Source of the DNA: Candidatus Nomurabacteria bacterium
GTDB taxonomy: Bacteria; Patescibacteriota; Minisyncoccia; Phycocordibacterales; UBA918
Length of the DNA stretch: 64,000 bases
NCBI GenBank assembly: GCA_020631995.1
Contig: JACKGJ010000002.1
Span: 154,773 to 218,772 of the forward strand
Reading direction: 5' to 3'
Within the stretch, counting starts at the first letter, position 1, and each line of letters starts with the position of its first letter. Positions 2,321-63,186 of the stretch are shown here, in pieces. The notes beneath the pieces were generated by a model. The model ran no database searches. It saw only the letters and a program-made list of their open reading frames with translations, and was not told where the DNA came from. Both the position numbers and the translations under genes were made by a program.

Positions 2321-2415
2321 AATTGCCTCTATTTTAACCCGCAAAACTATACTTGACTAATGTGATTAAATATGCTTTTATTTAAACAAATACGCAGCAC
2401 AACCAGGAGAGACCT

Positions 2416-2652
2416 ATGACCATGTTCATTCAAATTTTTGTTGCAATTTGGACGATGTGTTCGATCATTGTGGCGGTCACACTTGTCACAATGATTGTCA
2501 GCGATAACTCGGCAGAGAAGAAAGCTTTATTCTCTACTTCGAAGCAAAGCCTATTTTCAGCGCTGGGTTTCATTCTGACGGTGGCACTCGGCCCCGTCTT
2601 TATGGGGTTTGCACACGGTAGATTCATCGTCCTTGTCAACGGTGAAAAGTAA
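2416..2652 (+). CDS. small hypothetical membrane protein (78 aa, two hydrophobic segments)
   Basis: AGGAGA lies 6 nt upstream of the ATG. Two TM-like stretches are present (IQIFVAIWTMCSIIVAVTLVTMIV and LFSALGFILTVALGPVFMGF). An intrinsic terminator follows at 2675..2708. Confidence 0.55.
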   Translation: MTMFIQIFVAIWTMCSIIVAVTLVTMIVSDNSAEKKALFSTSKQSLFSALGFILTVALGPVFMGFAHGRFIVLVNGEK

Positions 2653-2674
2653 GTTAAACATTCAAACACCGAAT

Positions 2675-2708
2675 CCCGGAAACCCTAGCGGTTGCCGGGG
2701 TTTCTTTT
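2675..2708 (+). terminator. intrinsic terminator
   Basis: Hairpin CCCGGAAACC-CTAGC-GGTTGCCGGG followed by TTTCTTTT. Confidence 0.6.
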
Positions 2709-2765
2709 GATAAAACAGTAAGTCATAATTACATTAGAGATTCAATGAAGCTGTGGGAGGAAAAT

Positions 2766-2891
2766 CATGAAAGGATTCAATTGGTGGCTTATAAAGTTAC
2801 CTAGAATATTAATTACGATGATCATGTTGGTCGCTCCTATCTTGAGTATCTTGCTGTTTGCAGGAAACTCACCTTGGAGAATCTTCTATTG
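2766..2891 (+). CDS. possible 41-aa hydrophobic micro-protein
   Basis: Below the track size cutoff. GGGAGG lies 6 nt upstream of the ATG at 2766. Translation is MKGFNWWLIKLPRILITMIMLVAPILSILLFAGNSPWRIFY. A strong terminator follows at 2926..2955. Confidence 0.4.
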
Positions 2892-2925
2892 ACTCGTACG
2901 TGTTCATTTTGAACTGCACGAAAAA

Positions 2926-2955
2926 GACCGGCGCTTTCGCGCCGGCCTTTTCTTG
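2926..2955. terminator. bidirectional intrinsic terminator between the micro-ORF (+) and rpoC (-)
   Basis: GACCGGCGC-TTTC-GCGCCGGCC, flanked by an A-run on the left and a T-run on the right. Confidence 0.75.
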
Positions 2956-2988
2956 TTCGCTTTACTCGTTCACTGTGTTTTCCTTCTC

Positions 2989-5900
2989 CTATTGCTCACT
3001 CGATACAGCACGAATCATATCGTACTTCTTTGAGCCCTTGAAGCCAGAACCAGCTGGGATGAGGCGTCCGATGATGACGTTCTCCATAAGCCCTGCTAGA
3101 TTGTCCTGACTTCCCTTTACAGCAGCGTTAATCAAGATACGAGTAGTATTTTGGAACGATGCAGCTGATAGGAAGCTCTTACGAGACAGTGATGTCTCAG
3201 TAATTCCGAGGATGAGTCGTTCAGACTTCGCTGGTTCTTTGCCATCAGCCTTCATTTTCTTGTTAGCTTCAACAAAGATCCATTCCTCCACCACTTCTCC
3301 AATGGTGAAGTGTGTATCCCCGGCGTCGATTATCTTCACACGACTCATCATCTGCTTAACGATAAGCTCGATGTGCTTACGTGCGATGGTCACACCCTGA
3401 AGTTCGTAAATCTTGTTAACTTCAGAAATGATGTAGTCCTGAGTCAATTCACGATTACCAAATTTAAATAGTTCAGGTAGGTGAGCTGAACCGTCGGTCA
3501 TAAGTTGACCACCAGTTACATTATCTCCTACTGATACAGTAACCATACGACGGTAATTTACTTCATACTCTAGGTTGTCAGAGGTCTTCTTAGCGTATTT
3601 AGCACCCTTAACTGGGGTAACTACGATAACCTTCTCCTTACCTTCACGACGGATTTCAGTAACGATACCATCGGTCTTAGAAACGATAGCAGGAATCTTC
3701 GGCTGACGTTTTTCAAATACTTCTTCTACACGAGGAAGACCTTGTGTTACGTCTCCTCCGACTGACGCAGCTCCTCCAGCGTGCTTTGTGTTCATCGTTA
3801 GCTGAGTACCTGGCTCACCAATCGCTTGGGCTGCCACAGTACCTACTGCTTCACCGATGTCCACTACACGGTTAGTGGTAAGGTCGTGTCCGTAACACTG
3901 CTGACATACTCCACGCAAGGTGGCACAGGTCATTGGTGAACGCACGACTACTGATTCACAAGTTGAGCCTTCAAGGGCGATAGCATCACGACGTGATAGT
4001 AGGTGACCCTTTTTGAAAATCACTACTCCCTTATTGTCTACAGCATCTTCTGCTAGTACGCGACCCTTAATAGCCTTAGAGAAAGCAATCTCGATACCAG
4101 AAGCAGAAATGCGCCCAATCTTAGTTCCCTGCTTAGTCTTACAGTCTTCCTCAGTCACAATAGCGTCTTGCGCTACTACGAAGAGACGACGAGTTAGGTA
4201 ACCAGCCTTAGCGGTTTGAAGCGCGGTGTCGGCTAGACCCTTACGTGAACCGTGAGTGGTGATGAAGTATTCAATCGGTGTCATACCTTCCTTCATAGAA
4301 GAAAGTACTGGGAACTCTAGAGTTTCACCACGAGTGTTAACAATAAGACCCTTCATACCAGCCATCTGGGCAATCTGTCCGAGAGAACCACGAGCGCCAG
4401 ACTTCCACATCTCGAAAGCAGAACCGTTTTCATCGAGAGTTTCAGGCAAGATGCCTTCAATCTCACTCTTAGCATGGTGCCAAACACCTACAATCATTCT
4501 GCGACGTTCGTCACGGGAGATAAGACCTTCGTCAAAGTGAGAGAAGATTTCACGCTCAGATGCGCGAGCATTTTCGATGATGCCAGCTTTTCCAGCCGGA
4601 ATAACTACCTCATCAATACCCCAAGTGGTACCTGACTGTGTTGCGTATTTGAATCCGAATTTCTTGAGACGGTCAACAATTGGTGGAACCGCGTCAGCAC
4701 CACGATCATCAATGATATCAATGATGATATTGAAGAGTGTTTTTTGCACTACTACATCGTTAATGAAGTCGTAGTCACTAGGCAAAACGCTATTGAAGAG
4801 TAGTCGTCCAACTGATGTTTCAAACAACTTACCTTCGTATTGTTTGTACTTTGGAGTATCGGTTGCTAATACCTTAATCTTGGCTCGGAAATCTACAATA
4901 CCGTAATCGTAGGCGTTGATAGCGTCATTCGGGGATGCAAAGAATTTATCTTCTCCCTTAGCTCCATCGATTATCTTAGTCATCCAATATGCACCAAGGG
5001 CCATATCAAGAAGCTTTTCAGAAACTACCGGTTCAGCAGAACCAGGCTTAAGAATGTTCTTGTTAGCAGAAATGATTTCCTTAGCTTCGAGCTGGGCTTC
5101 GTCAGAGAGAGGTACGTGTACCGCCATCTGGTCACCATCGAAGTCGGCGTTGAAAGCGCGACAAACAAGTGGGTGCACTTGAATAGCGTTACCTTCAATA
5201 AGTACCGGGCGGAAAGCCTGGATACCCTGTCGGTGAAGGGTTGGAGCACGGTTTAGAAGTACGTGCTTGTTCTTAATGATGTTTTCCAAAATAGCCCATA
5301 CTTCTGGAACTCCGTCTTCAATCAGGCGCCCTGCCCCACGAATGTTGTATGCAAGCTCCTGCTTTAGAAGCTCAGAAATAACAAATGGTCGGAACAGCTC
5401 CAGAGCCATATGTTTAGGAAGACCACATTGATCTAGGTCTAGGTCAGGACCGATAACAATCACAGAACGTCCAGAGTAGTCCACACGCTTTCCGAGTAGG
5501 TTCTGTCGGAAGTATCCCTGCTTACTCTTAAGGTAATCAGAAAGTGACTTCAATGGGCGACGCTGAGCCTGACTCATCATTGAGTAGGCACTGTTACCAT
5601 GACGGATAGAGTTGTCGATTAGGGCGTCAACCGCTTCTTGCAGGATACGCTTTTCGTTACGCAAGATAACGTCCGGTGCCATAATGTCGATAAGCTTCTT
5701 GAGACGGTTATTACGGTTGATTACACGTCGGTATAGGTCGTTTAGGTCAGATGAAGCGTGACGGCCACCTTCAAGAGCCACCATCGGACGAAGTGCTGGT
5801 GGGATGACTGGAAGTCGGGTTAGGAACATCCATTCAGGACGAACTCCACTGTGGAGCATTCCGCGCACGAGGCCTAGACGCTTGTCGAGCTTGGCTCGCT

Positions 5901-6681
5901 CCATCGCTCCAGCAGTCTCACGCTCAGTAACTAGACGCTTGTGTAACTCTTCAAGGTTTACATTTTTGAATACTTCAAAAACACTCTCAGCACCAATCTT
6001 TGCTTCAAAAAGTGTTCCGTACTTAATAGAGAATTTATGGAACTTGTTTTCATCCAATACTGCACCTTGTTTGATGGAGTTGATTTCACTTTTAACTTCG
6101 TCTAGTCGCTCCTTGAGTTCAGCTAGGGCCGCTTCATTTTTGAGCTCTTTAGACTTAGTTTTGTACTCGGTTGATAGTTCTGCCATCAGGCGTGAACGCT
6201 CGCTTTCAGCTACTTTAGTGATGATATATCCAGCGAAGTAGATCACCTTCTCGATGTCAGCAGCTGAGATTCCAAGAATAAGGGCAATGCGACTAGGTAC
6301 ACCACGTAGGAACCAGATGTGTGACACTGGTACACAAAGGTCAATGTGACCCATTCGCTCACGGCGCACAATTGCGCGAGTAATTTCTACTCCACACTTT
6401 TCACAAACGATACCCTTATATCGAATACCACGATACTTCTTACAAGAACACTCGTAGTCTTCTACTGGCCCAAAGATTCTCTCGTCGAAGAGACCATGTT
6501 TTTCTGGACGCTGAGTTCGATAGTTAATCGTTTCAGGCTTAGTCACCTCACCATGGGACCATTCGAGAATTTTGTCTGGGCTCGCAAGTTTCAAGCCCAC
6601 CCCAGTGAACTGTGGTGTTGCTCGTCTTGGAGGACGACTCCCGTTTCCTCTATCTCGGTTGTTTGATTCTTTTATTTCCAT
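2989..6681 (-). CDS. rpoC: DNA-directed RNA polymerase subunit beta-prime
   Basis: 1230 aa. Contains the catalytic [12 protein letters not shown] motif and shows typical RpoC sequence throughout. ATG at 6681. Confidence 0.98.
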
Positions 6682-6703
6682 AATAAATTATTTAGTGAGG
6701 TGA

Positions 6704-9700
6704 TTAATTTTCTTCGCCAGCTACTTCGCGACTAAGGTCTACATCTAATGAGAGACCACGAAGTTGATTAACGAGCACGTTGAAAGCGGCTGGAGTGTGT
6801 GGATGGCTAATCTTCTCGCCACGCACAATTGCATCGAAGGCTGCAGAACGACCAACGATATCGTCGGACTTAATAGTGAGCATTTCTCGGAGTGTATAGG
6901 CAGCACCATAACCAAGGAGCGCCCACACTTCCATCTCTCCGAAACGCTGACCTCCGATTTGTGCCTTTCCTCCCAATGGCTGTTGAGTAATGAGAGAGTA
7001 CGGACCAATAGAACGCATATGAATCTTGTCTTCCACCATATGGTGAAGTTTCAAGATATACATATATCCAACCGCAGTCTTCTTAGCGAACTCTTCACCG
7101 GTACGACCATCGCGAAGTTGAATTTTTCCATCTGTAGGTAGACCAGCAGCAACAAGTTCTGCCTTTACGTCATCTTCGGTCGCTCCACTGAATGGTGGCA
7201 CCACAGCTTGGTAACCAAGTGTGTTGGCAGCCATTCCGAGGTGAAGTTCAAGAATCTGTCCCAAGTTCATACGAGACGGTACACCAAGTGGTGTGAGAAG
7301 AATGTCAACAGGCTGACCGTCTTCAGTGTATGGCATATCTTCTTCAGGAAGGATACGAGAGATAACTCCCTTGTTTCCGTGACGTCCAGCGAGCTTATCT
7401 CCAACTGAAATGTTACGTACCTGAGCAACTGTGATGTGAATTCGTTTGATAACTCCACTTTCAAGTTGATCCCCTGCTTCACGAGAGAAAACCTTAATAC
7501 CAATAACGCGACCACGCTTCCCTGCTTCCAGACGAAGTGAAGTGTCCTTAACATCTTTTGCCTTCTCACCGAAGATTGAACGAAGTAGTCGTTCTTCTGG
7601 AGAAAGTTGCGTTTCTCCCTTTGGAGTTACCTTACCAACCAAGATATCCCCTGGTCGGATTTCTGCACCAACGCGGATAATACCGTTTTCGTCGAGGTTG
7701 CGGAGTTTGAGCTCTGAAACGTTCGGGATGTCAGGTGTGGTTACTTCAGGCCCGAGTTTAGTGTCACGTACAGCTACGTCAAACTCTTCCATATGAATGG
7801 TAGAGAACTTCTTTTGCTTTACTAGGCGCTCTGAAATAACGATAGCGTCTTCATAGTTGGCACCTGACCAACTCATAAAAGCAACGAAAGCGTTCTGTCC
7901 TACAGCGATTTGTCCGTTGTCGGTAGATGAAGTGTCAGCAAGAAGATCCCCTCGCTTAACTTTGTCACCCATAGTTACAGCTGGACGGTGGTAGAAGGCT
8001 GAGAAGTCGTTAGTACGCTGGAAGGTAGTTAGTGGGTAAACCTTCTTCTTACCTTCTTTATTCTTGAGAGTAATATGTCGAGCGTCTACTTCAATTACTT
8101 CACCAGCTTCTTCAGCATTGATGACGCGAGCAGTGTCGGAAGCAACCATCTTTTCAATACCAGTTGCTACAATTGGAGCTTCAGGGATAAGGCAGGGTGT
8201 AGCCTGCTTCTGCATATTTGAACCCATCAGAGTACGGTTGGCATCGTCGTGGTTTAGGAATGGAATCATCGAGGTAGCTACTGAGAAAGCTTGGTTGGTG
8301 GCGATGTCCATAAAGTCCACCTTTAACTTTTCCACAGTACGAGGCTCACCATTTTTTCTAGCGTCCACCATATCGTCTTTGATACGACCCTTTTCGTCAA
8401 CAATCACCGCTGCGTGAGCAATATTGTATTGCTCCTCTTCGTGAGCATTTAGGTAAACGATTTCATCTGTTACAACTCCCTTCACTACTTTCACATATGG
8501 AGTTTCAATAATACCGAAGCGGTTCACTCTTGAGTACATAGCCAAACGAAGAATCAAACCAATGTTTGGTCCTTCTGGAGTGTGGATTGGACAAAGTCTT
8601 CCGTAGTGACTGGTGTGTACGTCACGTACTTCAAAGCCGGCACGTTCACGTGTTAGTCCACCTGGTCCTAGAGCAGAAAGAGTACGTAGACCTTCAAGCT
8701 CTCCTAGGAGGTTTTGCTGTGGCATAAATTGCGACAGCTGGTTGGTAGTAAAAAATTCCTTAATAGCCGCTTGGAGTGGGCGTGGGTTGATGATTTGCAT
8801 CGGGAGAGATGTCTCAGCCTCGATGGTAGACATACGGTCCTGAATATTTCGCTTCATACGAGTCATACCAACACGTACGCGCTGGATCACCATTTCACCG
8901 AAGTATCGCACACGACGGAAACCAAGGTGGTCGATATCGTCAGGTAGAGCACCTGGAGTGTGGTTTGAGGTGATTATATGAGTGATGATGCTGTGTAGGT
9001 CTTCTAGAGAAACAGTACGGTTATCGGTAGCCTTCTTGTCGATTGGACGCTTGAAACGTTCATTGAAGTGGTGGCGACCAATTTCTGAAAGGTCGTATCG
9101 CTCTGGAGAAAAGATAGAATCAACGAACTCACGAGCATTTTCTACTGTCGCCAAGTCACCGTCACGAAGACGCTTGTATATTTCGATATATGAGTCATCA
9201 GTAGTCTTGGCTGGGTCCTTAGCCAAGGAAGCCTTGATATACTCTTCTCCACGCTCTACTCCCTTAACGAGCTTAAGCATTTCGGCTTCCGTTTCAGCTC
9301 CAAGTACACGTAAGAGTGAAGTGATAGGAAACTTCTTCTTACGGTCGATCTTCACATAGATACAGCCATCATGTTCAGATTCAATCTCAACCCATGCTCC
9401 ACGAGCTGGGATGATCTTGGCACCAAAGTGAGTACGACCCTTTTGTTCACTTGCAGTGAAAAAGATACCGTATGAACGTGCCAGCTGGGGTACAACTACA
9501 CGCTCCACTCCGTTGATGATGAAAGTACCATGCTCAGTCATTACCGGTACGTCAGCAAGGAAAATCTCTTGCTCCTTCTCACTTTCAAAAGTTTTGTTCT
9601 TAAGAACGATGGTGGCACGCAGTGGTGCGTCGTAGGTTTGTTTGTTTTCTTTAGCAAGCTCTGGAGTAGTCTTCGGCTCACCCATTTCGTAGCCCTTAAA

Positions 9701-9919
9701 AACCAACTCAAACTTCTTTTCTGAGTAGTCACTAATCGGTGAAAATTCTTTAAACACACCACGAAGACCCTCGTCTACAAACCATTTGTATGACAAGAGC
9801 TGTGGCTCGATTAGGTTTGGTACTGGAACTACCGGCCCACGAAATTTTGAAAAAACTTTAGGCGGCAGACTGCCGATAGCTGTTCCTTCGTGTACCACAC
9901 TCTTAATCTTTTTATCCAT
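6704..9919 (-). CDS. rpoB: DNA-directed RNA polymerase subunit beta
   Basis: 1071 aa. Contains conserved RpoB blocks (GDKLAGRHGNKGVIS, SRMNLGQILE). Lies 22 nt upstream of rpoC. Confidence 0.98.
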   Translation of the reverse strand: MDKKIKSVVHEGTAIGSLPPKVFSKFRGPVVPVPNLIEPQLLSYKWFVDEGLRGVFKEFSPISDYSEKKFELVFKGYEMGEPKTTPELAKENKQTYDAPLRATIVLKNKTFESEKEQEIFLADVPVMTEHGTFIINGVERVVVPQLARSYGIFFTASEQKGRTHFGAKIIPARGAWVEIESEHDGCIYVKIDRKKKFPITSLLRVLGAETEAEMLKLVKGVERGEEYIKASLAKDPAKTTDDSYIEIYKRLRDGDLATVENAREFVDSIFSPERYDLSEIGRHHFNERFKRPIDKKATDNRTVSLEDLHSIITHIITSNHTPGALPDDIDHLGFRRVRYFGEMVIQRVRVGMTRMKRNIQDRMSTIEAETSLPMQIINPRPLQAAIKEFFTTNQLSQFMPQQNLLGELEGLRTLSALGPGGLTRERAGFEVRDVHTSHYGRLCPIHTPEGPNIGLILRLAMYSRVNRFGIIETPYVKVVKGVVTDEIVYLNAHEEEQYNIAHAAVIVDEKGRIKDDMVDARKNGEPRTVEKLKVDFMDIATNQAFSVATSMIPFLNHDDANRTLMGSNMQKQATPCLIPEAPIVATGIEKMVASDTARVINAEEAGEVIEVDARHITLKNKEGKKKVYPLTTFQRTNDFSAFYHRPAVTMGDKVKRGDLLADTSSTDNGQIAVGQNAFVAFMSWSGANYEDAIVISERLVKQKKFSTIHMEEFDVAVRDTKLGPEVTTPDIPNVSELKLRNLDENGIIRVGAEIRPGDILVGKVTPKGETQLSPEERLLRSIFGEKAKDVKDTSLRLEAGKRGRVIGIKVFSREAGDQLESGVIKRIHITVAQVRNISVGDKLAGRHGNKGVISRILPEEDMPYTEDGQPVDILLTPLGVPSRMNLGQILELHLGMAANTLGYQAVVPPFSGATEDDVKAELVAAGLPTDGKIQLRDGRTGEEFAKKTAVGYMYILKLHHMVEDKIHMRSIGPYSLITQQPLGGKAQIGGQRFGEMEVWALLGYGAAYTLREMLTIKSDDIVGRSAAFDAIVRGEKISHPHTPAAFNVLVNQLRGLSLDVDLSREVAGEEN

Positions 9920-9982
9920 ATCAGTTTCTTTGAATAATAAAACTTATAAACCTACCCCACACATCTAATTCTCATAACACAC

Positions 9983-10008
9983 AAAAACCGACACATAGTG
10001 TCGTTTTT
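9983..10008 (-). terminator. terminator/attenuator-like hairpin about 65 nt upstream of the rpoB start
   Basis: The minus strand reads AAAAA-CGACAC-TAT-GTGTCG-GTTTTT. Its symmetric A/T runs would let it work in either direction. Confidence 0.5.
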
Positions 10009-10069
10009 GAAAATATTTGCGGTTACTTAATTGTTATAAACATTACCCCCAGATGTTTATTAGACTTCT

Positions 10070-10306
10070 CCCAAACTAGCGTATCTGTACTAGTTTCAGA
10101 ATTCCGGCTCGTCACCTTAGATTGTCTAAGGCACCACACAGAGTACTTCAGAAAATATAGTCGTGCGCGCACTCCTTATTTTCTTGGTCGCTCTGTCGCC
10201 AAAACTCTTCCAACCAGCACATCTACATCTAGTTTTGGAAAAGTCTATCGCTCTAAGATTTAGGTGGCTTTAAACCGCAACACAATCACCCCTAAATCGC
10301 AAGTGG
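10070..10306 (-). repeat. GCTAG-box intergenic element, long-hairpin type (copy E)
   Basis: The minus strand aligns with 59641..59775 (+) in three blocks: CCACTTGC; GATGTAGATGTGCTGGTTGGAAGAGTTTTGGCGACAGAGC; and CCTTAGACAATCTAAGGTGACGAGCCGGAATTCTGAAACTAGTACAGATACGCTAGT. A 57-nt nested hairpin is inserted after GACAGAGC. Confidence 0.7.
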
Positions 10307-10371
10307 ATAAAACATAACAGAAAATCACGCTTATTGCAAGCCCTCTCTGGGGAAAACTTGCTTGACTAAGG

Positions 10372-12200: not shown

Positions 12201-12211
12201 ATAGTTGCACA

Positions 12212-12239
12212 AAGATACCAAATTAGCGTTAATTGTCAA
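12212..12239 (-). promoter_or_regulatory. sigma-70-type promoter for rpsP (very short leader)
   Basis: The minus strand reads TTGACA, 16 nt, TATCTT, with the ATG 11 nt after the -10 element. Confidence 0.45.
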
Positions 12240-12290: not shown

Positions 12291-14282
12291 ATGTCAAACA
12301 ACGACACCTTCGAAGGGGTAATTGCAATCAGAGGTAGAGGTATCGGTTTTGTACCCAAACCAGACCTAGAGGAAGATATACTTATTGAAACGAGCAACCT
12401 AGGTTTTGCCCTAGATGGTGATTTGGTACGCATTTCCCTATTGGAAACCACCGAAGGAAAGCGTCAGGAAGGTAAGGTACTAGAAGTGCTGGAGCGAGCA
12501 CATAGTGAATATGTTGGTGTGGTTAAGGACCGTGCTCCAGAAACCGCTGCCATTAGCAATCACTTTCTTCGTGAACAGGCTGAAAAGAAAAGTCAGTATT
12601 ATGTGCTTCCGGACAATCGGCGTGTTCATATACGCTTCGCACTAGGTGAAGAAGCAAAGGAAATGGTGGGCCAGAAAGTGGTAGTTAAAATTAGTGAGTG
12701 GAACGATCCTACTGAGGACCCGCAAGGAGCCATCATAGAGATTCTTGGACATGCAGGAGACCATGAGACCGAGATGCAAGCCATTATTCGTGGTGGTGGA
12801 TTTTCTGAAAACTTTCCAGAAGCGGTATCACAAGCAGCGAAAGAGATTTACGATAATCAAGAACAGATATTTAAAGACGCACTTGCTGACCCGAAGCGTA
12901 AGGATATCCGTGGTGTTACGACCTTCACTATCGACCCTATTGATGCTAAAGACTTCGATGACGCCTTATCTTTTCAAAAGTTACCGAATGGTAACTATGA
13001 AATCGGTGTGCATATTGCTGATGTGTCTCACTACGTGCGTGAAGGAGATGTGCTGGACACCGAGGCTCGTGAGAGAGGCACATCTATTTATCTCGTGGAC
13101 CGAGTGATTCCAATGTTACCTGAGGTGATTTCTAATGACCTCTGTTCTCTTCGCCCCAATGAAGACCGATTAGCTTTTTCGGCCATCTTTGAAATCTCTC
13201 CGGAGGCGAAAGTAGTTCAGGAATGGTACGGACAAACTGTTATACATTCTGATAGACGTTTTAGTTACGAAGAAGCACAAGAGGTGTTGGATAAGAACCA
13301 AGGTGATTACCTACCAGAGCTTTCTAAAATGATGGAGTTAGCACGTATGATTCGTAAGGAGCGTTTTAAGGAAGGTGCAATTGCCTTTGAACAGCCAGAG
13401 GTAAAGTTTGAGCTCGATGAGGCTGGTAAGCCAATCCGTGCTTATACAAAGCATCGTACAGAGACGATGCTTATGATTGAGGACTATATGCTCCTCGCCA
13501 ACCAGAGTGTCGCTACATATATATACAAGCTCTCAAAGGATAAAAATCGTGATGCAGCCTTCATCTATCGTATCCACGATTTACCAAACCCAGATAAAAT
13601 TGAGGACCTCGGTATCTTTATTCGAGCACTTGGATATGACTTCCGTACTGAAAATGGAATAGTCGATGCAAAAGACATCAATAAACTTCTAAAAGAAATT
13701 GAAGGAAAGCCAGAAGAGGCTTTGATTAAAACTGCAACCATTCGTTCAATGGCTAAAGCTGTGTACTCGACCAAGAACATCGGTCACTTTGGATTGGCTT
13801 TCAAATACTATACCCACTTCACTTCCCCGATTCGTCGTTATCCTGACTTGATGGCACACCGGTTACTCCGTCGTCACTTGGATAATTCAAAAATTAGTGG
13901 CCAAGAAATTGCAAAATTTGAAAAGCTCTCTATCCAATCATCTGAGCGCGAGTTGGATGCTACTCGAGCTGAGCGCGATAGTATCAAGTATAAGCAGGTT
14001 GAATTTATGGCACCGAAGGTTGGGCAAGAGTTCGATGGAATTATTTCCGGTGTCTCAGACTGGGGTCTTTATGTAGAGGAGAAGGAGTCAAAGTCAGAAG
14101 GTATGATTCGACTGTCCTCTATCCGTGGGGACTACTATGAGCATTTAGCTGGTGCATACGCTATCAAAGGTCAAAAGACCGGCAATGTATATCGTCTTGG
14201 TGATGCTATCCGCTTCAAGGTGGTCAAAGCTAATTTGGAAGAGAAACAACTAGATTACGAGTTAGTCAAGCCACTTAACTAA
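12291..14282 (+). CDS. rnr: ribonuclease R / RNase II family exoribonuclease
   Basis: 663 aa. RNB-domain motifs are present (TIDPIDAKDFDDALS, IHIADVSHYV, YTHFTSPIRRYPDL), followed by a C-terminal S1-like domain. Confidence 0.92.
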   Translation: MSNNDTFEGVIAIRGRGIGFVPKPDLEEDILIETSNLGFALDGDLVRISLLETTEGKRQEGKVLEVLERAHSEYVGVVKDRAPETAAISNHFLREQAEKKSQYYVLPDNRRVHIRFALGEEAKEMVGQKVVVKISEWNDPTEDPQGAIIEILGHAGDHETEMQAIIRGGGFSENFPEAVSQAAKEIYDNQEQIFKDALADPKRKDIRGVTTFTIDPIDAKDFDDALSFQKLPNGNYEIGVHIADVSHYVREGDVLDTEARERGTSIYLVDRVIPMLPEVISNDLCSLRPNEDRLAFSAIFEISPEAKVVQEWYGQTVIHSDRRFSYEEAQEVLDKNQGDYLPELSKMMELARMIRKERFKEGAIAFEQPEVKFELDEAGKPIRAYTKHRTETMLMIEDYMLLANQSVATYIYKLSKDKNRDAAFIYRIHDLPNPDKIEDLGIFIRALGYDFRTENGIVDAKDINKLLKEIEGKPEEALIKTATIRSMAKAVYSTKNIGHFGLAFKYYTHFTSPIRRYPDLMAHRLLRRHLDNSKISGQEIAKFEKLSIQSSERELDATRAERDSIKYKQVEFMAPKVGQEFDGIISGVSDWGLYVEEKESKSEGMIRLSSIRGDYYEHLAGAYAIKGQKTGNVYRLGDAIRFKVVKANLEEKQLDYELVKPLN

Positions 14283-14336
14283 GATTCATAAGGTAATATA
14301 TTTGTAGGAGCAAACACCTGAAAGGAGGTGAGTAAA

Positions 14337-14597
14337 ATGCACTTTTTAAGCGCAAGCCTGTCCTTAAAGGACGGTGTACTCGAGCGGTTCCTTGAATTCG
14401 TGAATACTACTCCAGGAGTTAAGAGTGGGAGTAATCCACCAGACTTCTTCGGTTGGAATTCACTCAAGTTTGCATGGGTTAAACTTGAGAGTCAATTCTT
14501 GAATGCTGCTGACTTGGCAACGTTGCTAAGGAGCGCAGGATTCGCTGTTGATGTCTACGATGAAAACGAACACGAACCAAGGGAGCAGGTGTCATGA
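14337..14597 (+). CDS. hypothetical 86-aa protein (orphan, Shine-Dalgarno-led)
   Basis: AAAGGAGGTG at 14321..14330 lies 6 nt upstream of the ATG at 14337. A terminator follows. The gene looks G+C-richer than its neighbours. I recognise no family. Confidence 0.55.
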   Translation: MHFLSASLSLKDGVLERFLEFVNTTPGVKSGSNPPDFFGWNSLKFAWVKLESQFLNAADLATLLRSAGFAVDVYDENEHEPREQVS

Positions 14598-14622
14598 TTG
14601 TCATTTTTTACAATGACAGAGA

Positions 14623-14660
14623 AGCCCGGAAAGATAAGACAATTATTCCGGGCTTTTTTA
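14623..14660 (+). terminator. intrinsic terminator
   Basis: AGCCCGGAA...TTCCGGGCT followed by TTTTTTATTTT. It overlaps the convergent smc stop codon. Confidence 0.6.
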
Positions 14661-16907: not shown

Positions 16908-16914
16908 TATAGAG

Positions 16915-17352
16915 TTACTGTGGATCAGCGCAGGAGGTGGCTCCAATAGTTTTACTATCAGTCCATCCGGCAACGGTTGCTTCCTGTTCGCGTTCTCCAA
17001 TAGTCCAAAGACGATAATATTGAGTGTCGCCAGTTACTGACGGACTAGCGCAAGAGTTTTCATACGTGTATACGTTATCCCCGTCATTTAGTGGATCAGT
17101 GGGTATTGAGAACAGTAGCCCAACCGATACTAAGTCTTCAAGATCAGAAGGATATTCTCCATATGTGACGCCGTAGGTTTGTAGAGCCGCAGCAAGCTGT
17201 TGGATGTCAGCGTGTCTGGCAGAATCTCTGGCCTTTTTCTTAGAGTCATCAAATGATGCAAAAACTATTAATGAAAGTAGTCCAATAATGGCAATCACTA
17301 CAAGAATTTCAATCAGTGTGAATCCTCGTTCAATTTTTAGTTTGCTTTTCAT
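16915..17352 (-). CDS. type IV pilin / pseudopilin-like protein
   Basis: MKSKLKIERGFTLIEILVVIAIIGLL is a class III signal peptide with the G/FTLIE processing motif. Start taken as ATG 17352. The stop lies 7 nt before the smc start. Confidence 0.85.
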   Translation of the reverse strand: MKSKLKIERGFTLIEILVVIAIIGLLSLIVFASFDDSKKKARDSARHADIQQLAAALQTYGVTYGEYPSDLEDLVSVGLLFSIPTDPLNDGDNVYTYENSCASPSVTGDTQYYRLWTIGEREQEATVAGWTDSKTIGATSCADPQ

Positions 17353-19756: not shown

Positions 19757-19766
19757 AGTGGTGGAT

Positions 19767-24268: not shown

Positions 24269-24275
24269 TTGGGGG

Positions 24276-50650: not shown

Positions 50651-51547
50651 TTAGTCAAGATCGTGATTTTTGATACTGCCGGAAAGAGTACGGAGTTGTC
50701 GGAGCGCTTCCTTTCCTTGGTCTGACTTCTTCACCATATTTTCTGGACCCTTGCCTGGAGGATTACCATGCCAACGATAATCTCTCTCAAATATGTCCAC
50801 ACCTTTGCCGGGAATAGTGTGCGCGATTATGACAGACGGCTGGCTGTATACGGCTTGCGCCTTCCCTATTGCGTCAGCTACCATTCTCATATTGTGTCCA
50901 TCAACTTCCTGCACATCAAAGTTAAAGGATTCAAATTTGTCGCGAAGTGGCTCAAGAGGCATTACGTCTTCAGTGTCGCCGTCAATTTGTATACCGTTGC
51001 GGTCTATTATCGCAACTAAGTTATGAAGTCTTTCTTTACCTGCCATCATTATAGCTTCCCAAGTCTGTCCTTCCTGTAGTTCGCCATCACTCATAAGGCA
51101 GTAAACATATTGTGATGTATATTCATTATCCATCCTAAGCCCTATGGCCATACCTAGAGCTTGCGAAAGACCACTTCCTAGCGGGCCAGAACTAGTTTCA
51201 ATACCTGGTAATGAACCACGATGCGGATGTCCTTGGAGTCTGGAGCCAAATTCACGAAGAGTGAGTAATTCTTCGACTGGAAAATACCCACGATGTGCTA
51301 ATGTTGCGTATAAGACTGGGCAAATGTGACCATTACTAAGTACCAGCCTGTCTCTTAGTGACCAATCTGGGTCTTTTGGGTTGTGTTTCAAGATATGAAA
51401 ATAAAGTAGAGTGAATATGTCAGCCATACCAAGAGGACCTGCGGTGTGACCACTCCCGGCCGCCATTAGCATTTCAATAATGCTTTGGCGTATAGCATTG
51501 GCAGATAACTCCAATGACCTTACCTCCTCATCTGACAAATTGTACAT
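50651..51547 (-). CDS. tkt: transketolase, N-terminal (thiamine-diphosphate-binding) subunit
   Basis: 298 aa. GHTAGPLGMADIF, SNGHICPVLY and SDGELQEGQTWEA. Lies 6 nt upstream of the C-terminal subunit. Confidence 0.9.
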   Translation of the reverse strand: MYNLSDEEVRSLELSANAIRQSIIEMLMAAGSGHTAGPLGMADIFTLLYFHILKHNPKDPDWSLRDRLVLSNGHICPVLYATLAHRGYFPVEELLTLREFGSRLQGHPHRGSLPGIETSSGPLGSGLSQALGMAIGLRMDNEYTSQYVYCLMSDGELQEGQTWEAIMMAGKERLHNLVAIIDRNGIQIDGDTEDVMPLEPLRDKFESFNFDVQEVDGHNMRMVADAIGKAQAVYSQPSVIIAHTIPGKGVDIFERDYRWHGNPPGKGPENMVKKSDQGKEALRQLRTLSGSIKNHDLD

Positions 51548-51574
51548 CTTTGTAATTATAACTCCTTGTGACTT

Positions 51575-53266: not shown

Positions 53267-54325
53267 TTAACTCTGGTTAGTATCTTGGGTAGGATTAGCA
53301 AGATTTTTTACAACCGCACTAATGTGTTCAGTTAAAGTGTGCACGTATGACGCCTCGTTATCATACCAAGCTAGTACTTTGACCAAGTTGCCATCTACAA
53401 CTTGAGTCATACCAAGGTCAGCAATAGCACCAAACCTAGCACCTATGATGTCGGAAGAAACTAGAGGCTCGTTAGTAACCGCAAATACTTTTTTCCAGCG
53501 GTCTGATTGCGCAGCTTTGGTCAAAGCCTGATTTACTTCCTCTACGGAGGTCTCGCGGGATGCAATGAAAGTAATATCCACAATAGAGCCAACCGCTACA
53601 GGGACGCGGATTGAGATGCCATCAAACTTCCCTACTAAGTCAGGGTAGGCTAGCGTGGTAGCAATAGCCGCACCTGTAGTAGACGGAATTATGTTTTGTG
53701 CAGCCGCTCTACCGTCACGTAGATTCTTTTTACTAGGACCGTCAACTAGAGATTGTGAGGCCGTGTAGGCGTGTACCGTATTTAAGATTGCCTTATCGAT
53801 ACCGATGGTCTCCTTTAAGATTCCAACTAAAGGCGAGGCAGCGTTAGTGGTGCAGGAAGCATTTGAAGTAATTTCGCAGGTCTTAAAAGCTTCTTCATTG
53901 GCTCCAATCAGTACAGTAGCTCCCTTTATGTCAGATTTGGTAGGGTCATCTTTTACAGGAGCGGTGATAACAACCCTTTTTGCGCCGGCCGTGAGATGTG
54001 CCTTGGCTTTCTCATAACTATTGAAGACACCAGTCGATTCCACAACCAAATCAATGTCTAGTGATTTCCAAGGCAATACAGACGGATCTTTTTCGTGAGA
54101 AAGAGCAAGCTTTCTTCCGTTAACCGTCAGTCCATCTCCATTAACCTCAACAGGAAATGGAGCGTGACCATACATAGTGTCGTATTTTAAAAGGTAGGCA
54201 AGGTTTTCCGGTTGTCCCAAATCATTAATAGCGACTACTTCATAGTCGTCTCTACCTTCCGACATCCTAAAAAACGTACGTCCAATTCTACCAAAACCAT
54301 TGATAGCTACTTTTAGCTTTGCCAT
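53267..54325 (-). CDS. gap: glyceraldehyde-3-phosphate dehydrogenase (type I)
   Basis: VAINGFGRIGR and the SNASCTTN active site. 352 aa. Confidence 0.95.
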   Translation of the reverse strand: MAKLKVAINGFGRIGRTFFRMSEGRDDYEVVAINDLGQPENLAYLLKYDTMYGHAPFPVEVNGDGLTVNGRKLALSHEKDPSVLPWKSLDIDLVVESTGVFNSYEKAKAHLTAGAKRVVITAPVKDDPTKSDIKGATVLIGANEEAFKTCEITSNASCTTNAASPLVGILKETIGIDKAILNTVHAYTASQSLVDGPSKKNLRDGRAAAQNIIPSTTGAAIATTLAYPDLVGKFDGISIRVPVAVGSIVDITFIASRETSVEEVNQALTKAAQSDRWKKVFAVTNEPLVSSDIIGARFGAIADLGMTQVVDGNLVKVLAWYDNEASYVHTLTEHISAVVKNLANPTQDTNQS

Positions 54326-54344
54326 AGCTATATTTTACAACAAA

Positions 54345-58663: not shown

Positions 58664-59602
58664 TTATAAAGTTACACCAATCTTTTTACGGACCTCTACC
58701 ATTTTAGCGTTAGCACGAGCCCGAGCTTTCTCGGCACCTTCTTTTAAGACTGACTTTATTTCCTCGTCAGTAATACTTTCGCGCTTTTCTCGCATAGGAG
58801 TAATCAACTTCTCAATATCGTCGAGTAAGGCCTCCTTGAGTGTTTTGTAGCTACCTTTATTTTCTTCATATAGGTTCACTAGCTCTGACTCAGGTCGAAA
58901 GAGTTTATGTATGCTGAAAACATTTTCCGGACGCTCACCTGTGGAGTCAGTCACAATACCCATTACTGCCTTTTGTACTTCTTCCTTAGTTCCAAACAGC
59001 GGGATAGTGTTCTTATAGCTCTTAGACATCTTGGTACCGTCTGTACCCGGAATCACTCCAACACCTTCTAGAATCATCTCCTTCGGAGCGGAGAAAGTAT
59101 CTCCATAAGCAATATTAAATTTATTAGCGGCTTCTCTAGTGTATTCAACATGTTGCTTCTGGTCCTGTCCGACCGGTACCACTTCAGTGTCATACAAAAG
59201 TATGTCAGCGGCCATCAGCATTGGATAATTAAACAAGCCGGCATTAGCCTCCAAACCTTTGGCTACTTTGTCTTTATAAGCATGAGCAAGTTCTAAAAAC
59301 GGCACAGTTACTAGACATTCAAATATCCAAGCAAGTTCGGTGTGCTCAGGTACATCAGATTGCTTAAAGATAATGGCTTCACTCGGGTCGACTCCGACTG
59401 CCAAATAGTCTCTAATGACATCTTTGGTGTTCTGGCGAAGCGTAGATGGGTCCTTAATGGTAGTTAAGGCGTGATAATCCACCACCATTAGATGACTATC
59501 ATAGTCTTGGTACAAATCCACAAAAGGTTTCAGTGCCCCAAAGTAGTTACCCAGATGGAGAGCACCTGAAGGTTGTAGCCCGGTCAAAAGTCGCTTTTTC
59601 AT
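58664..59602 (-). CDS. trpS: tryptophanyl-tRNA synthetase
   Basis: GLQPSGALHLGNYFG (HIGH-type motif) and KMSKS. 312 aa. Confidence 0.92.
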   Translation of the reverse strand: MKKRLLTGLQPSGALHLGNYFGALKPFVDLYQDYDSHLMVVDYHALTTIKDPSTLRQNTKDVIRDYLAVGVDPSEAIIFKQSDVPEHTELAWIFECLVTVPFLELAHAYKDKVAKGLEANAGLFNYPMLMAADILLYDTEVVPVGQDQKQHVEYTREAANKFNIAYGDTFSAPKEMILEGVGVIPGTDGTKMSKSYKNTIPLFGTKEEVQKAVMGIVTDSTGERPENVFSIHKLFRPESELVNLYEENKGSYKTLKEALLDDIEKLITPMREKRESITDEEIKSVLKEGAEKARARANAKMVEVRKKIGVTL

Positions 59603-59640
59603 AGGGAAATACTAGCAGAAATACGCTAAAACACGAAATA

Positions 59641-61480: not shown

Positions 61481-61487
61481 ATTAACT

Positions 61488-61718
61488 TTATTCTTCTAAC
61501 TCAGGTAGACCGTCATCATTGGTAAAAACTTGATAATCCTTTTGGAGCAGTAACTCGTTAAAACACATCCAAATAGATAGCGCTATATAAACTGCTAATA
61601 CTATACGTATTAATGCAGTTTGTGTTTTTGTAGTTGAATGTTCGCTCATATGTTTGTACAAGTTTCGCTCTTTCTTTAAGTATAGTATAAAACCACTCGC
61701 CATTTTTGGAGTGATCAT
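61488..61718 (-). CDS. small hypothetical membrane protein
   Basis: One TM segment (ALIRIVLAVYIALSIWMCF). Start is uncertain; an internal ATG gives MSEHSTTK. The stop lies 7 nt before the kinase start. Confidence 0.4.
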   Translation of the reverse strand: MITPKMASGFILYLKKERNLYKHMSEHSTTKTQTALIRIVLAVYIALSIWMCFNELLLQKDYQVFTNDDGLPELEE

Positions 61719-61743
61719 TCATTTGTGTATAACAAATTAAAGC

Positions 61744-62361
61744 CTAAGACTTACCTCGTAGATAGTTCTCGCGAAGAGTTTGAAAATATTTTGGTACATA
61801 AGGCAGTAGCCTTTCATACTGCTGTTCTGATAAGAGCTGTATGGCACCTACCTCTTTACGACAACTTGCTTCACCACAACTACAGTTCATAACCCAAGGT
61901 AATTCATCATCAGTACTAGAATAATCAAAATTAAGCTCCTCTCCAGGCTCAATGTCACGTCGTGCTACAAATTCACGAGAAGTTCGCAAGCCTAAATTAG
62001 GATTGCAGGAATGATTTATATGATTGAAAAACGGAGCTGGTTCTATCCAGATATTTTTACCAACGGAATACCAGTCAGGATAAATGTAGCACTCCTCAGG
62101 AGTTTCAGCTTTAAAAAAGCGTGTAGGGCCATCCATTAGAAAAACTAGGCCTCCCTTCTTAAAGGCTTTTTTAGAAAAAAGTCCTTTACCCTTTACTCCA
62201 GCATCCTTAATTAGAAAATTGTCCTTATTATTTTTAAATCCGTAAAGTAAAAAAGTCCTAACCTGAGCTAATTGGTAACTTTCTTTAAATAATTTGAACC
62301 AGTCAATTGGATTGAGGGATTTTCTCAGCATATGCTCTGATGTGACAAATAAGTTTAACAT
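61744..62361 (-). CDS. SET-domain protein (putative lysine methyltransferase) with post-SET Cys cluster
   Basis: GKGLFSKKAFKKGGLVF, FFNHINHSCNPN, ELNFDYS and CSCGEASCR. The track TTG start at 62379 lies inside the upstream terminator T-run, so a downstream ATG (62361 or 62331) is used. Confidence 0.75.
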   Translation of the reverse strand: MLNLFVTSEHMLRKSLNPIDWFKLFKESYQLAQVRTFLLYGFKNNKDNFLIKDAGVKGKGLFSKKAFKKGGLVFLMDGPTRFFKAETPEECYIYPDWYSVGKNIWIEPAPFFNHINHSCNPNLGLRTSREFVARRDIEPGEELNFDYSSTDDELPWVMNCSCGEASCRKEVGAIQLLSEQQYERLLPYVPKYFQTLRENYLRGKS

Positions 62362-62371
62362 TGGCTTAACT

Positions 62372-62415
62372 GAAAACAAAAACCGCTCCCCGGGACAACT
62401 ATGTCTCGGGAAGCG
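62372..62415 (-). terminator. intrinsic terminator after the 62421 gene
   Basis: The minus strand reads CGCTTCCCGAGAC-ATAGTT-GTCCCGGGGAGCG followed by GTTTTTGTTTT. Confidence 0.7.
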
Positions 62416-62420
62416 ATATA

Positions 62421-63074
62421 TTATTCCGCTGGCATCGGCTGAACCTTGTGCTGTCTCGGATAAATGGCCCGAAAAGCAAGGACTGCCACAACAGCGTGGA
62501 GGGCAAAGAAGTAGATAGGATAGAAGCTCTGCCAGAGTATGTTATCCGTGTCCCTGAGGAGCACAGAGATGAACATACAGGCATATGCGACACACCAGAT
62601 TATCCACATAGTTGGACGTTCACTTTCTGGCTCCTGCCAGGTTGTGCGCCAAATGGGAATGAACGTAACGATTGTAGTGCCAACCGCAATCGCATTTGCC
62701 ATTTCAGCCAAATCAAACCAGAGCCAGATTGCAAGCGCGACAGCGTCGAAACTTACAAAAGCCCAGTCCTGAATTTTTGGCTTGTGATAAATAACACGGC
62801 CAGTACCACGCCGACGCTCACGCACTTGCGAGAAAAAAGTCGCAGATGTGATAGCAACCAGCCCTAGCACACACGCAAGTGGCAGAAGCGACGTTGACCA
62901 ATGTGAGTCAGTCATATGGTCGTAGGTCTGCCACTCGACAATTCCGCCAAAGAGCCACATAAACCACGTGGCTACGTTCGGCTTAACCTTCTCAGCGAAC
63001 ACCTGTTGTGCGTACATACCGTACGCCAGCAGATGTAATGAGAAGGCAAGTATTCCGAAAACTACAGCCCACAT
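62421..63074 (-). CDS. hypothetical multi-pass membrane protein (Trp-rich, about 6-7 TM), G+C-rich
   Basis: AGGAGAGG lies 5 nt upstream of the ATG at 63074; the track TTG start is rejected. I recognise no family. Confidence 0.6.
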   Translation of the reverse strand: MWAVVFGILAFSLHLLAYGMYAQQVFAEKVKPNVATWFMWLFGGIVEWQTYDHMTDSHWSTSLLPLACVLGLVAITSATFFSQVRERRRGTGRVIYHKPKIQDWAFVSFDAVALAIWLWFDLAEMANAIAVGTTIVTFIPIWRTTWQEPESERPTMWIIWCVAYACMFISVLLRDTDNILWQSFYPIYFFALHAVVAVLAFRAIYPRQHKVQPMPAE

Positions 63075-63186
63075 GGGTGCCTCTCCTGTTTTCAATACAC
63101 CCCAAAATTGGGGTATTTCTGTCGTTGATTATGTCACAAAATGAGTAAAATAGCAAGATGTTATCCACACCTTCGCTTAATCAGTT

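Follow-up and report, generated by a model that had tools for sequence, protein, structure and literature searches.

This locus raises the question of why two kinds of translation start stand side by side in one genome. It is a 64,000-nucleotide (nt) stretch from a Candidatus Nomurabacteria bacterium (contig JACKGJ010000002.1, positions 154,773 to 218,772), referred to below as the window. An initial annotation, made from the letters alone, had described core genes that have no Shine-Dalgarno (SD) site, along with small orphan open reading frames (ORFs) that carry one, and had offered either recent acquisition from SD-using donors or a distinct translational regime for accessory genes as the cause. 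The answer that appears probable from the present analysis is an inherited split of start kinds that bears no trace of recent import.

The window comes from a Candidatus Nomurabacteria/Kaiserbacteria-like metagenome-assembled genome (MAG) of the Parcubacteria and has a G+C content of 38-47%. Exact sequence matches assign it to Candidatus Nomurabacteria MAGs whose locus tags are H6788 and H6789. Contigs of a second assembly, GCA_020632025.1, are identical to it across a 19.7 kb overlap (12,652 + 7,062 nt) and add 7.6 kb on its left and 9.7 kb on its right. The analyzed set consists of the 64-kb window and these 17 kb of flanks, 81,257 nt and 72 genes in total, with public gene calls for comparison. 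Relatives were collected by an RNase R scan of species genomes and by later look-ups, giving 18 related loci in which gene order is strongly conserved.

Two kinds of translation start

Each of the 72 starts was scored by the duplex energy between positions -18 to -4 and the anti-SD sequence CACCUCCU. The seven flagged ORFs score from -6.1 to -14.3 kcal/mol, with motifs ranging from GAGGGA to AAGGAGGTGA at a spacing of 4-8 nt. Nine genes in all reach -6 kcal/mol or below, the remaining two being nudix and rpe, whose GTG/TTG starts are doubtful. A spaced SD is missing from 63 of the 65 non-flagged genes across the 81 kb, including nine genes of ribosomal-protein operons (infA, rpmJ, rpsM, rpsK, rpsD, rpoA, rplQ, rplM and rpsI) as well as dnaK, dnaJ, grpE, rpoB and rpoC. 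Starts of this kind are ATG in 94% of cases, with duplex energies mostly above -4 kcal/mol.

Several comparisons place this division beyond chance. SD-like pairing at or below -6 kcal/mol occurs in 3.1% of the genes that were not flagged, whereas random ATGs show it in 8.4% of cases (Mann-Whitney p = 7e-5), and by annotation it is found in seven of 14 genes without a Pfam family against two of 58 with one (Fisher p = 7e-5). The 18 related loci supply 141 orthologous core starts, of which a single one attains -6 kcal/mol and not one attains -8. The gaps between genes, 6.8 kb in sum, hold nine combinations of an SD, an ATG and an ORF of at least 40 amino acids, namely the seven flagged ORFs plus two antisense shadows; shuffled gaps hold 1.3 +/- 1.2 SD-led ORFs, with a maximum of 6 in 300 shuffles. 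In view of the shuffled, random-ATG and relative comparisons, the dichotomy of start types is therefore real.

The transcription units and coding sequences of the seven SD-led ORFs are as follows.

2405 to 2652, plus strand: orf78, a candidate gene, with SD AGGAGA at 2405-2410 and a 78-amino-acid coding sequence at 2416-2652; two predicted transmembrane helices; hypothetical protein at NCBI
2707 to 2945, plus strand: orf41 unit, with a promoter-like TTGATA-17-TACATT at 2707-2735 and SD GGGAGG at 2755-2760
2767 to 2892, plus strand: coding sequence of orf41, a candidate gene of 41 amino acids, hydrophobic, followed by a terminator hairpin at 2928-2945
14275 to 14597, plus strand: orf86 unit, with a promoter-like TTAACT-16-TATATT at 14275-14302, SD AAGGAGGTGA at 14322-14331 and an 86-amino-acid coding sequence at 14337-14597
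19826 to 20375, minus strand: orf75-orf57 bicistron, with a promoter-like TTGCTA-16-TATTAT at 20375-20348
20271 to 20044, minus strand: orf75, with SD GAGGGA at 20282-20277 and ATG at 20271
20044 to 19871, minus strand: orf57, with an internal SD AGGAGG at 20058-20053 within the end of orf75, a TAATG stop/start overlap and ATG at 20044
19852 to 19826, minus strand: predicted terminator hairpin of the orf75-orf57 bicistron
28376 to 28978, minus strand: orf158 unit, with promoter TTGACA-17-TAAACT at 28978-28950, a leader of about 90 nt and SD AAGGGAGGTG at 28866-28857
28852 to 28376, minus strand: orf158 protein, 158 amino acids, predicted to be secreted, with 8 invariant Cys; downstream of the sortase gene
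62421 to 63156, minus strand: orf217 unit, with a promoter-like TTGCTA-17-CATAAT at 63156-63128 and SD AGGAGAGG at 63087-63080
63074 to 62421, minus strand: orf217 protein, 217 amino acids, predicted to span the membrane several times

All seven SD strings that the initial annotation had listed are present where it placed them, at a spacing of 4-8 nt, with the ATG of orf41 at 2767. Its statement that core genes lack an SD is borne out by the 63 of 65 non-flagged genes and the 1 of 141 orthologous starts, as is the split itself by the free-energy profile that it had proposed against the 16S tail, here run on 72 genes and 141 orthologous starts. Its claim that every small orphan carries an SD fits the seven flagged ORFs and fails for orf76 (61488-61718), orf139/147, orf161 and orf249, which have neither a Pfam family nor an SD. 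The impression that the orphans are richer in G+C is correct at third codon positions (GC3), where all seven exceed the core mean (0.44-0.55 against 0.374 +/- 0.048; z from +1.3 to +3.7); total G+C is raised only in orf75, orf158 and orf217, and that of orf41 is below average.

SD-led ORFs as conserved genes

Five of the seven flagged ORFs are genes of conserved families under purifying selection. Their homologues are full-length and 40-89% identical with invariant Cys and Trp motifs, and nonsynonymous differences per site (pN) lie far below synonymous ones (pS) in orf86, orf217 and orf57. Assemblies from other samples independently carry these genes too. Despite purifying selection, SD-led genes evolve faster than their neighbors. 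Five of the seven proteins look membrane-bound or secreted, and a search for function gave no Pfam, NCBIfam or PDB sequence match to SD-led proteins.

The best represented family is that of orf158, with 14 homologous clusters (41-97% identity), all of which have a signal peptide, the motif KCCRQLRE and eight invariant Cys. The gene lies directly downstream of the sortase gene in five genomes of 43-55% G+C (the window, L092, L094, L098 and L100), and a metagenome scan with the orf158 profile returned four loci, two of them new. In all five genomes a promoter of the form TTGACA-16/17-TAnAnT can be read from the sequence at a distance of roughly 80 to 270 nt upstream of the ATG, and all five homologues retain an SD (AAGGGAGGTG, AGGAGA, AAGGAGGT, AAGGGGG and AAAGGAG) in a leader that is otherwise unalignable. 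The sortase gene and the separately promoted orf158-family gene form a conserved pair (28376-29982 in the window; also L092, L094, L098 and L100). The 5' leader of orf158 is long and variable in length and could be regulatory.

For orf86 there are four homologues besides its own entry (63-87% identity). The orthologue in L105 occupies the same rnr-smc slot and is preceded by GGAAGGAGGTGAT, which is complementary to the canonical 16S tail over 11 nt; the SD, AAGGAGGTGA in the window, extends to AAGGAGGTGAT in L105. The two orthologues are 64% identical, compared with 81-93% for the flanking core genes, and the dN/dS ratio is about 0.19 (pN 0.20, pS 0.61). The orf75 family has six representatives with the motif RP.KAC..CRH.RGGGW. 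Its partner orf57 (pN 0.33, pS 0.58) is represented by an orthologue in L105 and, in L094, by a counterpart of like architecture; the two-gene module recurs in L094, where its SDs are AGGAGA and AAGGTGA and the overlap is ATGA. A 600-amino-acid "member" of the orf57 cluster, P0007, was rejected as a clustering artefact of unrelated sequence. The orf217 family spans 15 clusters of 44-89% identity (pN 0.09, pS 0.56).

Conservation of the SD itself exceeds background sequence conservation, being found in 5/5 genomes for orf158, 2/2 for orf86, 3/3 for orf57 (window, L105 and L094) and 2/2 for orf75. It is also kept in the three GC3-rich alleles of orf217 (window, L109 and L107), in leaders that have otherwise diverged.

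These data leave very little credence for the explanation that the small ORFs are no genes at all and that their SD strings are incidental or were picked for resemblance to gene starts. Such an artefact would account for orf41, which is in no protein collection and, like orf78, is without homologues, and it would sit well with the lack of NCBI annotation for orf75, orf57 and orf158 and with a folding energy of 19757-20363 better than that of shuffled sequence (z = -4.65). The full-length homologues largely refute it for five of the seven. In addition, pN is well below pS, seven gap sites combine SD, ATG and ORF where 1.3 would be expected and none of 300 shuffles reached that number, and no Rfam match was found in the flagged regions. 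The coding-potential check proposed in the initial annotation gave the best codon score to the correct frame in six of the seven, orf41 being the exception. A hidden structured RNA between rnhB and rpmF (19757-20363) was likewise considered and rejected: the segment folds well, Rfam returned nothing for it at gathering or E-value thresholds, and both of its ORFs have protein homologues with conserved motifs.

Promoter geometry and context of SD-less starts

Many starts without an SD lie next to a promoter. A -10-like box, defined as TANNNT with at most two mismatches to TATAAT and ending 4-12 nt before the start, precedes 30 of the 72 genes compared with 9.3% of random ATGs, with peaks at 6-7 and 10-11 nt. 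Across the clade it precedes 69 of 141 orthologous starts (49%) where 8.6% is the background (p = 7e-36); distances of 6 and 9 nt are the most frequent, and the geometry is kept gene by gene, as in the pilin gene (7/7), dnaE (7/7) and rpmF (8/10, at 7-10 nt). In rpoD, rpmF, sortase and grpE a full -35/-10 promoter that matches at 11-12 of 12 positions ends 8-11 nt upstream of the start. The following starts illustrate this arrangement, with two operon-internal cases at the end.

19757 to 19794, minus strand: rpmF promoter, TTGACA-16-TATAGT at 19794-19767, whose end lies 10 nt upstream of the ATG (19756); no SD, near-leaderless geometry
12201 to 12239, minus strand: rpsP promoter, TTGACA-16-TATCTT at 12239-12212, whose end lies 11 nt upstream of the ATG (12200); kept in L105
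29947 to 29982, minus strand: sortase promoter, TTGACA-16-TATTAT at 29982-29955, whose end lies 8 nt upstream of the ATG (29946); alike in L092 and L094
49522 to 49536, minus strand: orf1157, TATAAT and 6 nt before the ATG, a leaderless geometry
51545 to 51560, minus strand: tktN, TATAAT and 7 nt before the ATG
54323 to 54337, minus strand: gap, TAAAAT and 6 nt before the ATG
59600 to 59614, minus strand: trpS, TAGTAT and 6 nt before the ATG
63670 to 63684, minus strand: orf161, a gene without Pfam family or SD, TACAAT and 6 nt before the ATG; alike in L102 and L109
21031 to 21049, plus strand: dnaE, TACAAT and 10 nt before the ATG; 7/7 orthologues have a box at 6-10 nt
17350 to 17365, minus strand: type IV pilin gene (145 amino acids), TACAAT and 7 nt before the ATG; box 6-7 nt upstream in 7/7 orthologues
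2989 to 9919, minus strand: rpoB-rpoC, an operon-internal SD-less start in which rpoC begins 22 nt past the rpoB stop, with A/T-rich sequence upstream and U at -1
33009 to 35616, minus strand: pheS-pheT, in which pheT starts 1 nt past the pheS stop with no SD; a coupled start

The rpmF and rpsP promoters had been read exactly in the initial annotation, which took them to imply leaders of a few nucleotides. Starts this close to a box suggest leaderless or near-leaderless mRNAs, as judged from sequence statistics, namely the enrichment of the box and its conservation across the clade. The SD-led genes show the opposite arrangement. Promoter-like sites were located for five of the seven, and their -10 boxes end 31, 34, 53, 76 and 97 nt before the ATG, compared with 6-13 nt in 14 of the 18 genes that have a full promoter and no SD (Mann-Whitney p = 0.006). 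Two units, orf41 and orf75-orf57, terminate in a G+C-rich hairpin and a run of T. As the simplest rule consistent with these data, a real, more structured leader goes with an SD and a promoter abutting the ATG goes with none.

The sequence around SD-less starts is also distinctive. The dominant signal is a U at position -1, U(-1), which is found in 49 of 65 SD-less genes (75%; window 608-63672 and flanks, for example rpoC at 6681, rpmF at 19756 and tsf at 40454), although A is also raised at -12, -10 and -4 (45-48%). G accounts for only 6-15% at positions -14 to -1. At starts that are the first in-frame ATG the U is present in 46 of 61 cases, compared with 39% at internal Met codons (p = 7e-9), and T precedes 30% of all ATGs as background. 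Across the 18 loci 84 of 141 orthologous starts have it, and only two of the seven SD-led genes do. Since U(-1) pairs with A37 of the initiator tRNA and raises initiation in E. coli (PMC10018350), its enrichment here fits such a pairing. The folding energy from -30 to +30 averages -5.3 kcal/mol around SD-less and -10.8 kcal/mol around SD-led starts (p = 0.001). Among operon-internal genes without a -10 box, nine of 15 start no more than 7 nt after the stop codon of the upstream gene or overlap it.

Inheritance or import

The initial annotation had proposed recent acquisition from SD-using donors as one origin of the SD-led ORFs. In this view the donors would also be richer in G+C, and the SD would be an unameliorated relic that may not work in the recipient. 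As an overall explanation this is improbable, and the evidence divides by gene. On its side are the GC3 values, which lie above the core mean in all seven, and a location in gaps whose content differs from relative to relative. Between about 60 nt and 2.9 kb separate the genes at the rnr-smc and rnhB-rpmF junctions. In L105, an insertion of about 590 nt in the rpoB-trmD gap carries the SD-led orf114 (114 amino acids), a gain or loss relative to the window, and in L013 the rnr-smc gap holds an SD-led QueD/PTPS gene; the variable gaps of relatives hold SD-led genes other than those of the window, a recurrence of the pattern that also counts for an inherited split. The most direct case is orf217. 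Along 1.6 kb of SET-orf46-histidine kinase sequence, L102 and L107 share 98.4% identity, and their orf217 alleles (L102:6001-6630 and L107:44-688) are 64% identical at the amino acid level. The L107 allele has the SD GAGGAG and a GC3 of 0.69, like those of the window and L109, while the L102 allele has no SD, a lower GC3 and a start 21 nt past the upstream gene, like those of L101 and L103; SD and high GC3 thus occur together in the window, L109 and L107 alleles, and neither occurs in L101, L102 or L103. This comparison of alleles indicates replacement by recombination within the species.

Against acquisition stands the position of the genes. orf158, orf86, orf75, orf57 and orf217 have the same syntenic position in relatives, and where DNA could be compared, synonymous sites are saturated or near saturation for orf86, orf57 and orf158. 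The orf158 family keeps both its SD and its GC3 excess in genomes of 43-55% G+C: the G+C of the gene is above that of its locus in all five, and its GC3 lies 2.8-4.8 standard deviations above the neighbors in the window, L092 and L094. Every orf158 homologue with neighbors available for comparison shows the excess, as do the SD-bearing orf217 alleles. SD-led families are confined to a handful of protein clusters, among which no outside donor lineage was found. There was no mobile-element Pfam match nearby, no adjacent tRNA and no PHROG match for the orphans, and the orf158 and orf86 families had no relatives on viral contigs. Given the same syntenic slots and kept SDs in relatives, recent import of orf158, orf86, orf75 and orf57 is refuted as far as sequence comparison can judge. 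What stands of the donor hypothesis is horizontal exchange for orf217. The other proposal, a distinct translational regime for accessory genes, is supported in that the SD-led genes are real, clade-restricted and fast-evolving, with SDs kept in relatives whose core genes are SD-less.

The convergent rnr-smc junction and the rnhB-rpmF gap (14283-14657 and 19757-20363; L006-L017) are variable hot spots in a block from rpoC to dnaE that is otherwise strictly syntenic across the clade. In L013 these hot spots hold SD-led QueD/PTPS as well as MBL-fold and HTH genes.

A probable inherited split and the anti-SD sequence

An inherited split would work as follows. About 40-50% of genes, comprising core genes and several hypothetical ones, would be leaderless, with starts 6-12 nt past a sigma-70-type -10 box; as mRNAs with no leader or one of a few nucleotides, they would need no SD. 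The internal or leadered starts without an SD are G-poor, A/U-rich and weakly structured, mostly with U(-1), and many lie 1-7 nt past an upstream stop. Likely routes for these genes would be reinitiation or coupling, entry at unstructured RNA, and U(-1):A37 pairing. The remaining class, about one gene in ten, would consist of small, fast-evolving, clade-restricted accessory genes for mostly membrane or secreted proteins, whose translation would depend on the anti-SD because their longer, G+C-richer and more structured leaders presumably cannot use the SD-less routes. Since SDs are kept while leaders diverge, the SD appears to be under selection, and a canonical anti-SD would therefore be present and usable. 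The canonical 16S tail with anti-SD is taken in this reasoning as ...GAUCACCUCCUUU / ...GGAUCACCUCCUUU.

Several points weigh against this interpretation. Two of the seven ORFs are weakly documented: orf78 has no homologue outside the same strain in the search made and no promoter could be found for it, and the exact sequence of orf41 is absent from the protein collection, with no homologue outside the strain. Gene starts are those of public gene callers and the analyst's choices, a doubt mitigated by the fact that the first in-frame ATG is the chosen start in 61 of 65 non-flagged genes. Leaderless transcripts are inferred from promoter geometry. The leader rule is incomplete because orf249, CitMHS, gyrB, rpoB, dnaK and the ribosomal-protein operon have neither feature: the -10 boxes of orf249 and CitMHS end 30 and 38 nt upstream yet no SD is present, and rpoB, gyrB and dnaK have no adjacent -10 box and no SD. 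The orf217 swap shows that at least part of the SD-led class moves horizontally, and the GC3 excess is absent from the SD-led genes of L105. Lastly, universal 16S motifs were searched in all 109 loci and were found only in L017, with no rRNA gene in the window or any close locus, so the 16S 3' end of this lineage was not recovered, and the motif CCTCCT has been reported in only 48% of Parcubacteria 16S genes (PMC9297842). The 16S gene of L017 (1-1898, minus strand), which belongs to a distant relative within the Paceibacteria, has a group I intron (672-1272), lies about 1.2 kb from rnr and is cut by the contig end at model position 1298, before its 3' end.

The reported scarcity of CCTCCT raises the possibility that the anti-SD has been lost here, as is reported for about half of the Parcubacteria, with the purine motifs serving protein binding, mRNA stability or S1 standby instead. 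The published absences overlap lineages without uL1 (PMC9297842), and no highly expressed gene of the analyzed set is SD-led. No statement was found in the literature that places Nomurabacteria/Kaiserbacteria in the uL1-lacking group ("OD1-L1"). Loss would leave unexplained why the motifs match the canonical tail over up to 10-11 nt (AAGGAGGTGA[T]) at a spacing of 4-8 nt, why they are kept across orthologues with diverged leaders, and why two genomes have an internal SD where stop and start meet in TAATG/ATGA; it is considered very unlikely.

A second possibility is an anti-SD that is present and masked. Bacteroidia are SD-blind, with the anti-SD covered by bS21, bS18 and bS6, and have rare SD-bearing genes (PMC7797042, PMC9976891, PMC13000453, PMC13000457). 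By analogy, the core would be SD-less and the SD-led genes would be read by a ribosome subpopulation or state with an exposed anti-SD, forming a regulatory switch. In favor of such a system are the depletion of core SDs below the random-ATG background and the existence of rare strong SDs on special genes, as with rpsU in Flavobacteriia (PMC7797042, PMC9976891, PMC13000453), and bS21 is among the ribosomal proteins that are larger in bacteria of the Candidate Phyla Radiation (CPR) (PMC9297842). Nothing in the present data bears on ribosome structure, however, and SD-led genes at about 10% go beyond one or two. Leaderless geometry, which is no trait of Bacteroidia, accounts for much of the SD-lessness, and the start context is dominated by U(-1) here, against the upstream adenines of Bacteroidia (PMC13000457). 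A masked anti-SD is therefore regarded as improbable.

Within the preferred interpretation, that of an inherited split, a stronger version can be formulated in which the anti-SD is kept almost only for secreted and membrane accessory genes and the core proteome is made by leaderless or U(-1)-dependent SD-less routes. This version is doubtful. If it were true and access to the anti-SD were under regulation, comparable to the masking by bS21 in Bacteroidia, the SD would be an on/off channel for the surface and host-interaction genes of an episymbiont, and the published "anti-SD loss" in Parcubacteria would need re-examination.

Comparison with known systems

Mixed regimes of leaderless and SD-led genes are known from Actinobacteria and Deinococcus-Thermus and correspond to "group C" of GeneMarkS-2. 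As in those phyla, a -10 box lies a few nt before many first-in-operon starts and leadered genes can carry an SD. Unlike those phyla, operon-internal and many leadered core genes are SD-less here as well, the SD class is limited to about 10% of genes, all small, clade-specific and accessory, and there is a strong extra U(-1) signal. In Bacteroidia, an upstream-adenine signal occupies positions -3, -6, -12 and -13. The present clade resembles Bacteroidia in the depletion of core SDs, including those of ribosomal-protein genes, in G-poor, A/U-rich starts and in having few strong SDs. It differs in its leaderless geometry and U(-1), Bacteroidia being marked by upstream adenines and not described as leaderless-rich, and in that the SD bearer there is rpsU, in autoregulation, while here it is several accessory genes.

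Compared with transferred islands, the SD-led genes share a raised GC3, variable gaps and presence/absence and allele differences (orf114 and orf217). Unlike islands, they have no integrase, transposase or tRNA flanks, are single genes that are mostly syntenic and old, and keep their atypical composition across genomes of differing G+C. Compared with the absence of an anti-SD in Parcubacteria (Tsurumaki et al. 2022, PMC9297842), the superphylum and the general loss of core SDs are alike, whereas the conserved extended SDs described here argue for an intact anti-SD and bear directly on the published claim of its loss. Judging by these SDs, either this clade would be among the 48% with CCTCCT or some of the reported absences would be truncated 3' ends. 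Quadruplet pairing of the start codon and U(-1):A37 with the initiator tRNA is described by Esposito et al. (2003), according to the account in PMC10018350. In E. coli the effect of U(-1) is modest and comes on top of an SD; here it would be a main determinant.

No new mechanism is involved; each ingredient is known from other phyla, and the combination is of both known regimes with U(-1). As read from the sequences, the split is one of a strong U(-1) signal and SDs restricted to about 10% of genes, all apparently small, clade-specific and accessory. Translation initiation in CPR/Patescibacteria is almost unstudied: literature searches found nothing on leaderless genes or translation in the CPR, and the only relevant statement was that an anti-SD motif is detected in about half of the Parcubacteria. 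The results describe one clade over many genomes, with an SD-less core, promoter-adjacent starts, U(-1) and a conserved SD-led minority. They are of relevance to the expression of surface and accessory genes in episymbionts. They also have a consequence for start prediction in CPR MAGs, for which public calls disagree on several starts.

Gene starts and other features of the window

Public callers differ on the starts of SLT (457/464 amino acids; 42763-44157), rpsB (250/260; 40510-41292), GT2 (517/531; 36813-38408) and smc (749/771/780; 14658-17000). For SLT, the ATG of the 464-amino-acid version has a TATAAT whose end is 7 nt away on the upstream side, and it seems a better choice than the TTG of the public call. 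In the segment 38494-39399, a publicly called ORF of 296 amino acids has a TTG start at 38509 and overlaps tRNA-Thr (38494-38569); the ATG at 38578, immediately past the tRNA, is its likelier start.

By Pfam, the genes of the window are rpoD', dnaG, rpoC, rpoB, trmD, a KH protein gene, rpsP, rnr, smc, a type IV pilin gene, rnc, a nusB-NUDIX fusion, rpmF, rnhB, dnaE, a short thrS, a repeat-rich surface protein gene, sortase, gyrB, pheST, tsf, rpsB, prfA, rpmE, rplY, a split transketolase gene, rpe, rpiB, gap, scpA, pepA, asnS, trpS, a histidine kinase gene and a SET-domain gene, together with a single tRNA-Thr. When species genomes are compared, RNase R (12291-14282) has its best matches outside its own clade in Bacteroidota, whose 44-49% identity is close to the 47-51% of more distant Paceibacteria; an old transfer or database composition could explain this. 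The surface protein (707 amino acids; 26110-28233) has about six tandem repeats of about 90 amino acids and a C-terminal transmembrane anchor. It varies in length, with 672 amino acids in L092 and 580 in L096, and L094 has only a 196-amino-acid ORF that matches its C-terminal part.

A few non-coding features complete the description. Where orf249 and gyrB converge, a long perfect hairpin (30755-30871) separates them, probably as a terminator for both directions; it yields spurious sub-threshold Rfam matches (ceN101, mir-268 and CsrC). The dnaE-thrS gap of 446 nt (24269-24714) contains a strong hairpin at about 24430-24470, and the gaps of relatives are much shorter. A T-box leader 5' of thrS was considered and rejected, as its partial match reaches 22-27 bits where the gathering score is 93, and mainly a terminator-like hairpin is covered. 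The ORF-free rpoB-trmD gap (9920-10371) gave no Rfam match; about 320 nt of it are 84-90% identical to L105 (L105:4869-5907) and so represent conserved non-coding sequence upstream of rpoB. Finally, the NusB-NUDIX fusion (298 amino acids; 18479-19375) is found in every related locus examined at 55-84% identity.

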